DNA from: Stx2 converting phage I
Sequence record: AP004402
DNA length: 61,765 nt
Reading direction: 5' to 3' (one strand)
Numbering within the stretch: the first letter of the stretch is position 1; each line of letters begins with the position of its first letter. Positions 18,001 through 30,000 of this stretch are shown here, piece after piece. The position numbers are program-made.

Positions 18001-21000
18001 ACAGAGCCAAAGTTGACGACCGTAATTATGCACTGAAGGAGAGGGAGTTTAACGCTAACCAGAATTACCGGAATGCGTCACTGGGTATGGAGCAGCAGCG
18101 ACTCCAGTTGCAGAAATACAACCAGCGACGGCTTGAGTATAACGATATGATTGCCCATAGCCAGCCACTAATGGAAGCGCTTGGAAAAGCAATTGAGGCT
18201 GGCGATCAGGAGGCTGCAACGCGTCTGTTCGGGCAGCTGCCAAAGGGACATCCATTAATTCTTATGTCAAACGAAGGCTATGCAGCGAAAGCGGGTCAGG
18301 CCGTGATCAACCTGCAAAAAATCTTTGGTGATAAGCCGGACATGGCGATCGATTCGCTGAATACCCCGGAAAATCTCGATGTGCTTTCCGGCGTGTTTGC
18401 CCCGGAACTACAACAGCGTATTGGCATGCCTGATTCAACCGGGGACAAAACGATAAAAGAGGCCAGGATTGGCAGTATCGTACCAGCGCAGCAGGAAGGG
18501 TACGTACTTATTGGCCTTGATCTCACATACAGCGATGGCTCCACCGCGCATAAACCTGTAACAGAATACGGCAGTGCGCACCCTGATGATCAAACCGTGC
18601 TGGCGATACCCGTTGATAAGGCTATCGCTCAGGTCAGGGATCGCAGCAAATTTGCAGAGATATCGAAAAATTATGGTTATTTTATGCCGAAGCAGCAGGG
18701 ACTTTCTCTGAAAGAGCTTCAGAAGGGGGCCAGCAACGTAGCGGCGGACGCGATCAAGAATGGCGGTAATGCTCAGGCTGCGGTGGATGAATATTATGCT
18801 GCGACTGGTTCACAACCGCATCAACAGAAAATTCAGCAACAAAAACTTCAGCAACAGGTTATCAACTGGGCGGGAGATGATCCTGACAAGCTGTCATTTG
18901 CCAGAAATGTAGCGGCCCGTCAGCCTGAAATGCTGGAACCTCAGAATCAGAAATTGCTGGAGAACGGGTATGCGAATTTTCTCCGTATTCAAAAGGCCTG
19001 GGGGGAACAGGCCAGAGATGAAAGTGCTTCATCTGCATCTCAGTTTATCCGTGGACTGAAACAGAATTACGCCCAGTAATTCACGATATTCCATTAATAC
19101 CATTTCCTGATGCCCGGCCATTGTGCCGGGTTTTTTTATGGAGTCTGTATGGCCTATTCAGAGGAACAGCGTCCTGAGGCGCAACTCGGTAACCAGAATC
19201 GTAACAGCCTGAACATTCAGCAACCCGGCGAAACTGACAGCTATGAAGCATTTTTCTCTGATCCGAATCGCTGGAAGGATAACAGTACGTCGTTCAGCCT
19301 GGGCGATGTATTGCCAACAATGGGTAAAGGTTTCGCCCAGTCCGTCCGGGGAACAGGGGAAATGGCCCGTGGACTCGGTGATGCGATGATTCAGAGCCCG
19401 GTAAAAACAGGGGCGCGTATTTTAAATGAGTTCAGCCGTATGGGGCTGCCGGGTGTCGCAACTGTGCAGGATATTTTTGCCGGTGGCAGCAGGGGGGCTG
19501 ATGAGGTCATCGATACCCTGCCTGATGGCAAAAACGCGGTTACTGATATTGTCGGTAAAGGTCTGAAGGCAACCGGTAAGGCTGTCAGTGATGGTGCCAA
19601 AGCCACTGATGAATGGCTGACCGGTAAGATGTCGCCGGGTGCAGTTCGTGCGCTGAATACGCCGATGACCGAAGGCTATAATGATTCTGCGGTCTGGGTG
19701 GCGAAGGGTGTAAACCTGATTGGTGCGCTTGTACCTGATATGGTTGCTGGCGGTGTGGCTAGAAAGGTGGGTGATGTCACACTGCGAAAAATGCTGACCG
19801 CCGGGCTGGAGAAAAAATACATCGCGGCAGGGATGCAGCCGGAAAGAGCCACGGCACTGGCAGCAGAAGCTGTCGATAAAAAAATGCCGGATTTATTCCA
19901 GGCGGGCCTGATCACCCATTCCACTGTAAGTGCACAGGGGCAGAGTGCAATGGCGGCAGCAGATGCTGTTCTTAATGCTGATTACTCTGAGCTGGCGCAG
20001 TCACCGAAATTTCAGCAGACGTTTTTGTCCATTGACGCCGACCCGCAGCACGCACAGCTTACTGATCGCCAGAAAATGGATCTGGCAAAAGAGCGTGTTG
20101 CCGATGAGGTGCGCGCGCAGCTGGCAACCGATCCTGAATTGCTGGCTGTGAATGCCATGGCGGCAAAACTGGGTGACGCACAACTGTTTAATCTGGTGAC
20201 ACGAGGCACAGCGAAGACCGTTAAAAGCGGCATTGTCAGAAATGCCACGGAACAGGGGGCGATTAATGCGGCGCAGGGCGGCTATTCACGCTATCAGGAA
20301 AACACGGCATTGCGTGAGACCGCCGGAATGGGTGTGTCACCGTGGGAGGGCGTGGCTGACGCAACGATCGAAGGTGCAGCCTTTGGTGCTGCGATGGGGG
20401 CTCCATTCGGTGCGGTTGCCGGATATCGTGGCAGACGTCAGGCCGCAGAAGAAACCGCCATGCGTGATGCTGAAACCGTGCAGCAGGACGACGCAGCCCC
20501 GCAACCAGAATCTGTTGATCCGGTGGCGCAGCAGCGTGAATCCATGCAGGGCATGAATCGCGAGCAGCTTCTGGAGCAGTATGCTGATGCGGATATGGCA
20601 ACAGAGGGTGACGCATCCGCAGCTCATCGCCGGGAAGCTGCCAGCCAGTTGTTGAATGAACTGGACGAACAGACGAAGCGACAGGCTGTGATGAATGAGC
20701 TGAAGGCGAAGCCGCGTTCTGAACTGCTTGAGGAATACCGCAGACTCAGCCAGAAAGAGGGGCGCACCGAGACTGAAGAACAACAGTTTCAGGCAATACG
20801 AGAAGTCATTCGCCCACAACAGGAAGTGACGCCGGAAGCACAGTCACAGCCTGAAAATGCGGAGGATGGTAACGGGAGCATTTACCCGACGGTGCGGTTC
20901 CGGGACCCGAATGAAGTCCGCATTGAAATTAACGGGAATGGTGCGTCCAGACCAGCGGAACGCATTGAGAAGGTGCGCCCGGACAACCGTTATTTCACGG

Positions 21001-27000: not shown

Positions 27001-30000
27001 CATCCTGGCTGAATGCGTTCTCAGGTGGCAGCCAGTACCGTCCCGGCGCGGTGGATATCACACCGGAATCGCTGAAATTCTGGATTGACTATATCTCCGG
27101 AGGGACAGGGCGCTTCATTTCCAAAACCACGGATGCGGCGGTGAAATCGCTGAATGGTATTGATATACCGGAACAGCAGGTGCCCTTCCTGGGGAAAATT
27201 TCGGGGGAGGTGATGCCGTATGCAGACCAGCAGAAGATGTACGACCGGATGACAGAGATTGCGCAGTATCACGCAGAGCTGAAGAGTCTGACCGGTGCAG
27301 AAAGAACGGCGTTCATTGACGAGAACAACGGAAAATTGTCGATGAACGGGCTTATGCAGGATACCCGGAAGAGACTGAAGGATTTGCGTAAACAGCGTGA
27401 TGCCATTTACGCCGACAGTACTCTCAGTCTGGCGCAACAGTCGGCGATGGTGAAATCGGTAGAGCGGGATATGAAAATTGCCGTGGATCGGTTTAACCGC
27501 GAGTACAACAAAAAAGTGGGAGTGGATTAACAGAAATGGCCCCGTACGGAAGTGCGGGGCTGATTAAGAAATAAACACTCATTGACCTGTAATAACCGGA
27601 GCTATTAACATATAGTCAGAAGAGCATTTCATGTGATACAGAGAGCCGATTTATGTTTAATGAAGAAAAAGTTGCGCAAATGGCAGCGTATTTGCTGAAA
27701 AAGCATGGCGGATCTATGCGTTTCATTAAGCTGAAGCAGCAACGGTAATGGCGAATAGCATTTATGAGCAAAATAATCTTGATATGTTATTAGGCGATCT
27801 GATGTAACCGGGATGATGTTCACCCCTTATCGCCGGGGAACAATACCGGCAATCAGAATTGCGGATGGAACTATTCAGGCCCACGATGATATCGATGAGG
27901 AGTTTTTTCAGCCAGTATTGGATGGCTTTCTTATATCCAAATATACGCCATTTGACATCCTCCACGCCCTGAAGGACGGGGTTTTACAGCGCACCGGATA
28001 AGATTCGGTGTTTTGTTGAAAAATACTGTGATAACAAACAGAAAACCCGTCAGTAAGACGGGCTTAGCAAGCTGGGACGGTTACTTTAATAATTTCAGTG
28101 CCTTTACATCCACTTCAACACTGCTCAGGTCTTTATCAATTTCACCCTCAATTCTTACTTTGTCTTTCGGAGAAACATTCTGACCGGCCCATATGCTGTC
28201 ATCGATATCCGTGACAATTGTCCCGCTATTGTCACGAAACTCATAACGTTCATCACCCACTTTTTTAACGATGCTCCCTTCAAGGATAACCCATGCATCA
28301 TCCTTCAGTTCTTTTGCCTGCGCTACTGTTGAACGCTCTGCTTCAGGCCCTTGGAAACCGCCCTGCTGTGCAAAAGCGCCAAAAGACACACCAGAAATAA
28401 GTGCTGCAATCAATACCTTTTTCATTCATAGTCCTCTTTCAGAGATGAACATTCAAACAGCATTTTCAGTATGGTAAAGCGCGGGTGCGTTGAGGATGCC
28501 TGACACATCAGAGGTGGCGGGAGATTACTCCCCCGCTTGGTCTCTTACTTCTCAGATTCGTAGTCTACGAAGACAGCGACCTCCGTCTGACCGGTTCGGA
28601 TTCGCACCTCGCAGAGGTCTTTCCTCGTTACCAGTGCCGTCACTATGACGGTTAAACAGATGACGATCAGGGCGATTAACATCGCCTTTTGCTGCTTCAT
28701 AGCCTGCTTCTCCTTGCCTTTCGGCACGTAAGAGGCTAACCTACATGTGTTCAGCATGGATTGAGCCTCAGATTAATGTTAAGCGTCTTGCCGGACGCGT
28801 AATGTTAACTGGGGCTTTTCTCTATCTGCCGTTGGTGTTCATGCCCGAGGCAGATAGCCTCAAGCACCCGCAGCAATTCTACTTAACTCTCCTTTTCCCG
28901 CAAACCGTTTTTATCTCCAGCGACAAATCGAATACACAACCAGCACCACCGCCATTACTGTTCCTACATTTGCGAATGCTTCAGGCCAGGTCATTGATTC
29001 ACCTTCTGCTCAATATTTTTAAGGTCATTTTCCGCATACAGTATTGCAGTTCTTGCTGCCCGCAACCGTGCTTTGGTGTTCTTTTCTTCACGCTCGAGGC
29101 TGGCAACAGATTCTCGGAGCTGATCGTGTCTGTTATGAAGCTGTCTAATCTCTCTCACCACAGCCTCACCATCGTTCGCACACCGCAGAACATACTGAAA
29201 AGGGTCCACAACACATCCGCACTGCAAGCACAGGATAACGTGATCCTGTTCATGAACCTCAATGGCCCGATGCTTACAGCTCTGTTGTGTGTAGTTTTTT
29301 CTGCCAGTTACTGTAATGTTCAGCAGCTTCTCTTCATCGCGCTTTGGCTGCACCAGTGTGATGATATTATCGCCTTCATTTTCCATCAGTTCACCTCCTG
29401 CGGCGGTTCTGGTAGCGGCATCCAGTGTGACGGTTTCCACGACGCACCAGGAATTATCCACCCATCATTAGCGTCAGGATGCCCCGGGATGTAAGTCGCC
29501 CACTTCATTCGCCAGTCACCTTTCCTGTCAAACTCCACGGCAACAAGAACGGCTGTTTTGGTATCCGGCATTCGCTCACTACAACTTATCCAACCATCCG
29601 GAGTTACCGGAGAGTTGCCAGACAGCGCATTCTGCAACCGTTCCAGCTTAACGTATTCCTGAACCCTGTTTCCGTCGCACGCCTGAAGCCATTGCTCAGC
29701 CTTTTGCGCATCAGTGTGAAAGGCACAAGTGCGACCGTCATCAAATTGCATTTCGTAGAGGTTAGCAATCTGTTCAAACTGCGTGTGTGGCAACTTGTAA
29801 GTTTGGCTTACGAGTTCGGCTTCCAGTTCTGCTATGCGCTTCTCTGATGCTTCAAGTAACGCCTGCTTATCGCGTAGCGCTTCTTCCAGTTCAGCAACAT
29901 GGCATTCACTATCAATAAGGTTGTTCTCTGCTGCTCCCAGCTCAACTCTCAGCTTCCCAACCGTAAGCGCAATCTCCTCGTTCTCCTGGTCGCGGCGTTT

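Follow-up and report, generated by a model that had tools for sequence, protein, structure and literature searches.

A giant cysteine-free protein of Stx2 converting phage I as a probable LPD38-anchored polyvalent virion protein

The DNA analyzed here is that of Stx2 converting phage I (sequence record AP004402), a stretch of 61,765 nucleotides (nt) that we call the window, and the gene in question is a giant one encoding a protein of 2,793 amino acids (aa). We propose, with a probability of roughly 0.7, that this gene encodes the Stx-phage version of an LPD38-anchored polyvalent protein of phage type, packed in the head and ejected with the DNA, and composed of a conserved C-terminal module (hereafter C-module) that serves as chassis and of a variable cargo. 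A preliminary description of the sequence had placed the protein in the polyvalent, virion-packaged class while remarking that this was not a recognised match. Membership is now supported because the Pfam domains found in it were defined on polyvalent proteins (Iyer et al. 2017, J Bacteriol, PMC5512222), and that remark has to be withdrawn: LPD5 (E-value 6.5e-45), LPD1 (5.2e-24), MuF_C (1.3e-17) and LPD38 (7.8e-48) are all recognized above their gathering cut-offs. The presence of the protein in virions of the sister phage phi24B supports the same assignment. The gene matters in that Stx phages disseminate the genes for Shiga toxin among E. coli and that it is essential while taking up 14% of the genome. 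The two published interpretations of its role disagree, and both rest partly on domain assignments that are not upheld here.

The window is of the phage 933W type, in which the giant gene is L0134 (AF125520.1; 100% identical over 8,382 nt), and Sp5 ORF80 (ECs1242), also of 2,793 aa, and phi24B gp47 are the same gene in sister Stx phages. Nucleotide identity of at least 90% to it occurs in 185 phage records, nearly all of Stx-converting phages. The stop-free translation bears out the open reading frame (ORF) first reported at 19149-27530, and the gene is indeed the last of the structural region: it closes the virion block of the + strand, after the terminase, portal, capsid and fiber genes, and occupies 13.6% of the window, in line with the early figure of about 14 percent. 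Because it encodes a textbook polyvalent protein, already deleted, complemented and proteomically detected in sister phages, the gene has to be regarded as known. New here are the structural confirmation of both peptidase domains, the corrections concerning MuF-C and the AAA+ ATPase, the extent and constancy of the C-module, the extension of cysteine avoidance to a larger family, and the occurrence of the peptidase cassette in conjugative elements.

Published experiments place the protein in the particle. In phage Sp5, ORF80 is one of nine essential late genes; its deletion yielded normal-looking heads with DNase-protected DNA and neither plaques nor lysogens, and ORF80 on a plasmid in the producing cell restored lysogenization of K-12 (Mondal et al. 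2016, PMC5155283). This complementation on the donor side implies that the protein is needed in the particle, on a host where restriction is not at issue, and its being essential in passage from K-12 to K-12 implies that it is not merely an accessory anti-restriction effector. In purified phi24B virions, from a sample in which ~40% of the particles are empty, gp47 ranks second among the proteins in abundance by spectral count (10,962 peptide-spectrum matches, PSMs); the authors label it internal, and it is absent from their cryo-electron microscopy (cryo-EM) model of capsid and tail (bioRxiv 10.64898/2026.04.10.717836). Its copy number has been estimated at about 10-35, or at 23 with the portal taken as 12. 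Peptides from its N-terminus, from the HEWFH site of the first peptidase domain and from the C-module were all detected, and the three queried phi24B tryptic peptides match the 933W sequence exactly. The preliminary description had named absence from virions as the outcome that would speak against it, and the protein is instead abundant in them. It is packed in the capsid, outside the ordered lattice of tail and capsid, and must be in the particle for infectivity.

The giant gene and the parts of its product are as follows (nt of the window, strand, description).
19149..27530, +, giant ORF, 2,793 aa, no stops, about 300 kDa, no cysteine
19629..20498, +, N-terminal Gly/Ala-rich region (aa 161-450), weakly hydrophobic at 181-208 and 407-425
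20499..21845, +, acidic Pro/Gln/Glu-rich low-complexity linker (aa 451-899)
21846..22748, +, conserved N-terminal accessory region of the first peptidase unit: motifs I.DFGE.I.GA.K and PLSK..P.P (aa 900-1050) and Pfam LPD5 (aa 1051-1200)
22749..23498, +, predicted metallopeptidase domain 1, a lethal-factor-like gluzincin (aa 1201-1450) that includes Pfam LPD1 (aa 1361-1440)
23580..24152, +, predicted metallopeptidase domain 2, a small zincin (aa 1478-1668) with HEIIH
24396..24665, +, MuF-C domain (aa 1750-1839), a predicted RNase of the PBECR barnase/EndoU/colicin-like fold
24807..27512, +, conserved C-module (aa ~1887-2788), with Pfam LPD38 at aa 2476-2681 (nt 26574-27191)

Two zincin-type domains and an RNase-like domain

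The first HExxH motif, HEWFH, occupies aa 1284-1288 (nt 22998..23012) and the second, HEIIH, aa 1551-1555 (nt 23799..23813). The early description had recognized both as zincin-type, about 270 aa apart, the first in a GPGALAHEWFHSLDNYFG context; the context is present and the spacing is 267 aa, while of the two sets of coordinates the second was exact and the first, given as 22997..23011, was off by one base. The amino acid composition of the giant protein would by chance give 0.035 HExxH motifs, against the two found. A homologue search with aa 1181-1750 retrieved 1,196 proteins: HEW[FWLM]H is kept in every match that covers the first motif, and HE[AISTM][FIM]H or HExxxH lies ~230-270 aa downstream of it in many relatives of 30-45% identity. 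On the strength of this conservation in distant homologues, the low chance expectation and the modeled folds, we consider both to be real active-site motifs of zincin folds, and the two domains would be active peptidases.

The accessory region together with LPD5 (aa 900-1200) and the first peptidase fall in one confident AlphaFold2 model (aa 900-1450), with a predicted local distance difference test score (pLDDT) of 90.7 and a predicted template modeling score (pTM) of 0.81. Domain 1 has the features expected of a zincin, with the HExxH helix after a mixed beta-sheet and a third-ligand Glu on a later helix, and eight of its residues (H1263, E1265, H1284, E1285, H1288, D1291, E1375 and E1382) are invariant in an alignment of 21 sequences. 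In the model, LPD1 is the C-terminal helical part of this gluzincin and bears the conserved E..AR.FE helix. The best structural neighbors are lethal factor, PPEP-2/3 and MtfA; in the Foldseek comparison of aa 900-1450 with the PDB, lethal factor ranked first eleven times, yet with E-values of 0.033 or more, which are not significant. Domain 1 shares with the phage-type metallopeptidase clade of Iyer et al. the same His at the end of strand 2 and the same Asp three residues past HExxH, and it also has the HExxHxxD motif of CLCA_X and of the anthrax lethal factor-like (M34/ATLF) gluzincins. CLCA_X zincins, a family found in phages and plasmids, were described by Lenart et al. (2013, PMC3650047), and domain 1 is no more than related to them: the NCBIfam model (NF041907) matches aa 1182-1437 with an E-value of 9.1e-44, its 149.8 bits lying below the curated cut-off of 260, and, unlike CLCA_X, the 933W domain is embedded in a giant protein and not free-standing.

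Domain 2 is covered by no Pfam model. Its H1551 and E1552 are kept in every domain-2 sequence aligned, some relatives having HExxxH; a His on the strand before them and a Glu helix (PEVQAGEF) ~50 aa downstream are conserved as well. The model of aa 1478-1668 (pLDDT 80) runs through a helix, three strands, the HExxH helix and further helices, which is the order of a zincin core; the features named above for domain 1 are present in domain 2 as well. The structural neighbors of both peptidase domains together are lethal factor, PPEP, MtfA, SprT/Spartan, IrrE and YbeY; YbeY, the top neighbor of domain 2, is an RNase, so that the fold alone does not fix the domain-2 substrate. Sequence searches of solved structures yielded nothing significant with the whole protein, with the profiles of both peptidase domains and of the C-module, or with two upstream proteins; the best suggestive match of domain 2 was to IrrE, with an E-value of 2.5. 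The profile and structure-prediction searches that had been recommended as a check thus gave the class-defining Pfam domains and two modeled zincin folds.

The cassette LPD5-peptidase-LPD1-peptidase, accessory region included, also stands alone as proteins of ~870-917 aa in conjugative elements of gut and rumen bacteria, where it is encoded beside TraG, TrbL (which in one case carries a fused M23 peptidase), a MobA/MobL relaxase, ArdC-N and a 2,463-aa helicase of SNF2 type. This occurrence speaks for a function in the establishment of incoming DNA and not in the construction of virions.

MuF-C follows domain 2 with a Pfam score of 64.2 bits against a cut-off of 27.6; its 'KH' and 'ASVYG' motifs are kept in close relatives and are not placed on the catalytic positions of the family. 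The paper that defined it describes MuF-C as a PBECR domain and predicted RNase (Iyer et al. 2017, PMC5512222, section 19). With MuF-C being a PBECR fold, we reject the 'MuF-C metallopeptidase' of the phi24B preprint (bioRxiv 10.64898/2026.04.10.717836). The COG1483 AAA+ ATPase assigned by Mondal et al. (2016, PMC5155283) is rejected as well, there being no Walker A motif ([AG]xxxxGK[ST]) anywhere in the protein and no match to an ATPase family. Searches of Pfam and NCBIfam likewise detected no methylase, helicase, polymerase or SLT lytic transglycosylase, and PADLOC gave no match. The resulting domain map, with two predicted zincins, an RNase-like MuF-C and a large C-terminal anchor and with neither ATPase nor peptidoglycan hydrolase, offers clean targets for mutagenesis.

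The C-terminal module and the avoidance of cysteine

An exhaustive search with aa 1843-2793, in which all counts refer to cluster representatives, found the C-module in 8,528 of them, 4,762 at E-values of 1e-30 or less. In each of the best 150 of these 8,528, it sits at the protein's C-terminus, followed by a median of 3 residues (at most 15 in 140 of the 150, 44 at the maximum), and the extensions N-terminal to it range from 0 to 4,294 aa. An HExx(x)H motif stands upstream of the C-module in 113 of 131 long members, at a median distance of 335 aa that in 933W is 336. Its many invariant polar motifs include YLYARHAPERN, GGSGMT, YVPLKG, AASLAKN.TVNFNR.GE and PLPYGYN. LPD38, reported to be restricted to phages (Iyer et al. 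2017, PMC5512222), makes up only ~190 of the ~900 residues.

A homologue of the C-module closes the structural block in Vibrio, Ralstonia GP4-like, Burkholderia Bcep22-like and Bacillus Page-like podophages, in giants of 1,679-4,667 aa that all have LPD38. The cargo of these and other C-module giants is diverse. In BcepIL02 and AhaGv it comprises an N-terminal SLT, an Eco57I-type methylase and LPD3, with a helicase C-terminal domain match in BcepIL02 in addition, and fourteen further giants carry cargo typical of polyvalent proteins, namely InPase, ART-PolyVal, ddrB-ParB, PBECR5, RadC, Sno/SNF2 helicases, a kinase, SLT and an Eco57I-type methylase. The giants Bcep22 gp75, BcepIL02 gp70, JC1 gp69 and those of the Ralstonia GP4-like phages have a homologous C-module with LPD38 (26-27% identity over ~900 aa) and resemble the 933W protein in being the product of the last structural gene, virion-associated by mass spectrometry (as reported for the Bcep22-like homologue of phage JC1) and devoid of cysteine. 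They differ from it in cargo, with SLT, an Eco57I-type methylase, a helicase and LPD3 in 4,500-4,700 aa, whereas the 933W protein has peptidase and RNase-like cargo and no SLT. With hidden Markov models (HMMs) of domains 1 and 2, matches to the Burkholderia, Ralstonia and Bacillus giants were not significant, and the HExxH motifs of these giants may be positionally equivalent to those of 933W. A significant domain-2 match exists only for the Vibrio giant (blastp 3.8e-25), where the motif is an HExxxH variant.

In Vibrio phage D75 (a giant of 3,066 aa with ~100 related records), the N-terminal region, domain 2 (HEILAH) and the C-module are shared with 933W, and the ~1,400 residues between the shared parts are unannotated cargo in which nothing is recognizable. 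A protein of 944 aa on a 145.7-kb contig has a terminase-like N-terminus fused to peptidase 2, MuF-C and C-module of a close homologue; this fusion is probably the outcome of prophage decay or an artefact of assembly or gene calling.

As is true of the polyvalent proteins of phage type described by Iyer et al. (2017, PMC5512222), 933W encodes a single giant polypeptide in the virion module, with LPD5, LPD1, MuF-C, LPD38 and two predicted zincins, and nothing in 933W contradicts membership in the class. The C-module marks out a very large family: giant virion proteins free of cysteine, in which the cargo is interchangeable.

The giant protein has 0 cysteines in 2,793 aa (P ~3e-11 at the 0.86% background of the neighboring structural genes). 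The same absence extends to each of four distant phage giants examined and, among the 150 C-module representatives, to 121, the whole set containing 51 cysteines in 378,557 residues (0.0135%). The N4 proteins gp50, gp51 and gp52 and the T7 proteins gp15 and gp16 are cysteine-free too. Among N4-like phages, suppressed cysteine use is conserved in the ejection proteins and has been ascribed to their crossing of the oxidizing periplasm (PMC11445570). As far as we have seen, such avoidance has been published for these proteins and apparently not for the C-module family. In 933W, it is the avoidance of cysteine that suggests delivery of the protein into the host.

Proposed mode of action and alternative explanations

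We envisage that the giant protein would be expelled from the head via the tail together with the DNA, in the manner of T7 gp15/gp16 and the virion RNA polymerases (vRNAPs) of N4 and DEV. The conserved last ~900 residues would act as chassis for encapsidation and/or for passage and docking at the cell envelope, and the variable upstream part would be the cargo. In 933W, this cargo would comprise a lethal-factor-like zinc peptidase unit of ~550 residues (accessory region, LPD5, catalytic core and LPD1), a second small zincin before the chassis and the RNase-like MuF-C. The peptidases most likely would cut the polyprotein itself, partner proteins or host proteins after exit from the capsid, a kind of processing proposed for the polyvalent class by Iyer et al. 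(2017, PMC5512222). Digestion of peptidoglycan by these peptidases seems unlikely, since the neighboring folds are not cell-wall peptidases, relatives in need of a wall hydrolase carry SLT, and the conjugative elements with the cassette have their own M23 enzyme.

By analogy, the closest functional counterpart would be the vRNAP of the Schitoviridae, N4 gp50 and DEV gp71, which is also giant (3,400-3,500 aa), cysteine-free and encapsidated. N4 gp50 has, as 933W does, an HExxH region (HELVH at aa 2228) before a large C-terminal domain, and smaller cysteine-free virion proteins precede the giant in both phages (gp52 of 150 aa and gp51 of 644 aa in N4; 148, 83 and 421 aa in 933W). The head of phi24B has T=9, and so does that of N4. 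Unlike the vRNAP of N4, the 933W protein has no T7-like single-subunit RNA polymerase core in searches of Pfam, NCBIfam and the PDB, and gp47 is estimated at ~10-35 copies against ~4 for the vRNAPs of N4 and DEV. Comparisons of the C-module HMM with N4 gp50-54 (independent E-value of 0.06 for gp50) and of the 421-aa protein of 933W with N4 gp51 (E-value of 0.10) were not significant. The T7 proteins gp15 and gp16 resemble the giant protein: they are encapsidated and cysteine-free, infection depends on them, and their genes come late in the structural block. No sequence or profile similarity between them and the giant protein was found. T7 gp16 carries an N-terminal SLT lytic transglycosylase, for which 933W has no match, and the portal of T7 bears its core proteins as an ordered stack, while the phi24B maps do not show gp47.

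Somewhat speculatively, the C-module might be a general chassis for protein delivery by podophages, the counterpart of the C-terminal domain of the N4 and DEV vRNAPs; it would dock on a trans-envelope tunnel made of the cysteine-free 148-, 83- and 421-aa proteins and bring whatever cargo is fused N-terminally to it into the cell, the small zincin lying ~170-340 residues before it acting as a release protease that cuts the cargo from the chassis after entry. We regard this as a tentative idea, with the odds against it; if true, more than 8,500 protein clusters would contain a modular injection system of natural origin with a 'fuse anything here' design. Understanding how the C-module is packaged and delivered would explain the injection of enzymes by many podophages and could offer a scaffold for protein delivery into bacteria.

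Several observations weigh against the proposal that the giant protein is a head-packed, ejected polyvalent protein. Particles lacking ORF80 showed no anti-tail-fiber labeling, from which Mondal et al. (2016, PMC5155283) concluded a role in tail formation, and a purely internal, ejected protein would not predict such a result. The C-module has no detectable similarity to solved structures or to N4 gp50 and contains only one weakly hydrophobic segment, so that conservation and position are what point to a chassis. The LPD5 region has few conserved polar residues in this subfamily and gave no fold match in structure comparison. The profiles of domains 1 and 2 are only weakly linked (hhalign E-value 8.8e-4, probability 23%), with the strand-strand-HExxH part aligned correctly, and we thus make no claim of close paralogy between them. 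Finally, the gp47 peptides in gel slices form a smear, with 62% of the in-gel PSMs in the top four slices, a pattern that neither shows nor excludes discrete processing; the phi24B supplement gives counts per slice for each protein, not for each peptide.

Among the alternatives, the one that fares best, while still improbable, was put forward in the phi24B preprint (2026; bioRxiv 10.64898/2026.04.10.717836), whose authors see gp47 as an ejection protein that forms a trans-periplasmic conduit and whose 'MuF-C metallopeptidase' degrades peptidoglycan. The protein is encapsidated, abundant and disordered in the maps, it lacks cysteine as known conduit proteins do, its Burkholderia and Ralstonia homologues have an N-terminal SLT as T7 gp16 does, and the giant protein of DEV binds the periplasmic tunnel protein through its C-terminal part. 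However, the preprint locates the peptidase in MuF-C, the RNase-like PBECR domain, while the predicted peptidase domains occupy other parts of the protein; the folds closest to theirs are those of protein-cleaving zincins and of the RNase YbeY, not of cell-wall peptidases of M23 or LAS type; the cassette also occurs in conjugative elements that encode an M23 hydrolase of their own; and 933W has no SLT domain and only weak hydrophobic segments. The conduit half of this explanation overlaps with the packaged and ejected polyvalent protein that we favor, and the peptidoglycan half is its weak part.

Slightly less credible is the explanation of Mondal et al. (2016), a factor for tail assembly or a structural protein of the tail, in whose absence the short tail, or at any rate its ORF67 fiber, would fail to assemble on filled heads, with energy perhaps drawn from an AAA+ ATPase domain. 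The gene does lie within the late morphogenesis block, and particles without ORF80 have normal DNA-filled heads and show no anti-ORF67 immunogold labeling; that labeling result is, however, a negative one reported as 'data not shown'. The complete tail of phi24B (portal, two adaptors, nozzle, needle and lateral fibers) was built by cryo-EM without gp47, which was abundant in the same sample, the sequence has neither the Walker A motif nor the family match that an ATPase would require, and the methylases, ARTs, RNases and pyrophosphatases attached to the C-module of relatives would make little sense for a tail scaffold. Since the full tail can be built without the protein, a role as tail component is unlikely, even if the missing fiber labeling stays unexplained.

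Least plausible of all, and by a wide distance, is an accessory anti-defense effector of P1 DarB type that would be dispensable on hosts without restriction: there is a match of aa 2351-2681 to PHROG 10089 ('DarB-like antirestriction'), methylase and helicase domains occur in the Burkholderia and Ralstonia homologues and the polyvalent class is predicted to counter host defenses (Iyer et al. 2017, PMC5512222), but the PHROG match is limited to the shared LPD38 region, 933W itself has no methylase or helicase match, PADLOC is silent, and deletion abolishes infection of K-12 by phage grown on K-12, where restriction is no issue. As an additional function of the cargo of an ejected polyvalent protein, anti-defense activity may nonetheless exist.

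Start codon, other regions and flanking genes

Two further features lie upstream of the giant gene.
16362..19079, +, four Gly/Gln/Ala-rich ORFs of 243, 148, 83 and 421 aa, candidate internal or ejection proteins
19112..19143, +, terminator-like GC-rich hairpin (19112-19131, then a run of seven T) and GGAG Shine-Dalgarno sequence (19140-19143), between the 421-aa ORF and ATG 19149

The longest ORF begins at ATG 19110 and has 2,806 aa; this is the start chosen by RefSeq, where the product is named 'LPD5 domain-containing protein'. ATG 19149 is the more likely start, judging from the sequence, because ATG 19110 falls within the stretch taken up by the terminator-like hairpin and GGAG precedes ATG 19149. 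The hairpin with its T run could attenuate expression of the giant gene.

The N-terminal Gly/Ala-rich region (aa 161-450; phrog_37568) is common to few relatives (Vibrio phage giants; 9 of the 150 representatives). As to transmembrane helices, the protein shows only weak Gly/Ala-rich segments, with Kyte-Doolittle peaks of 1.1-1.4; we propose no insertion into membranes. The poorly conserved linker of aa 451-899 (2 of 150 representatives) probably serves as a disordered spacer, and it is noteworthy that it bears a net negative charge in a protein packed beside DNA.

The Gly/Gln-rich candidate internal virion proteins said at the outset to precede the giant gene correspond to the four upstream ORFs, with 7-18% G, 8-11% Q and 12-18% A. 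Those of 148, 83 and 421 aa (17096-19079) are free of cysteine; the annotation of the 83-aa one, in which there is a Gly-zipper, reads 'bacteriocin'. Sp5 ORF79, which is essential (Mondal et al. 2016, PMC5155283), corresponds to the ORF of 421 aa. In phi24B, the homologues of the 243-, 148- and 421-aa ORFs (gp51, gp50 and gp48) are counted among the structural virion proteins, with no structure-based copy number and no place in the cryo-EM model, and the 86-aa gp49, homologous to the 83-aa ORF, is classed by the authors as probable contamination (bioRxiv 10.64898/2026.04.10.717836). The order small, medium, giant mirrors that of N4 gp52-gp51-gp50, without sequence similarity.

Just downstream of the giant gene and on the opposite strand (28545-28757, - strand, and neighbors), the 933W annotation has hokW/mokW/sokW, a toxin-antisense pair of the hok/sok type, and a gene for a YgiW/YdeI-like OB-fold protein.

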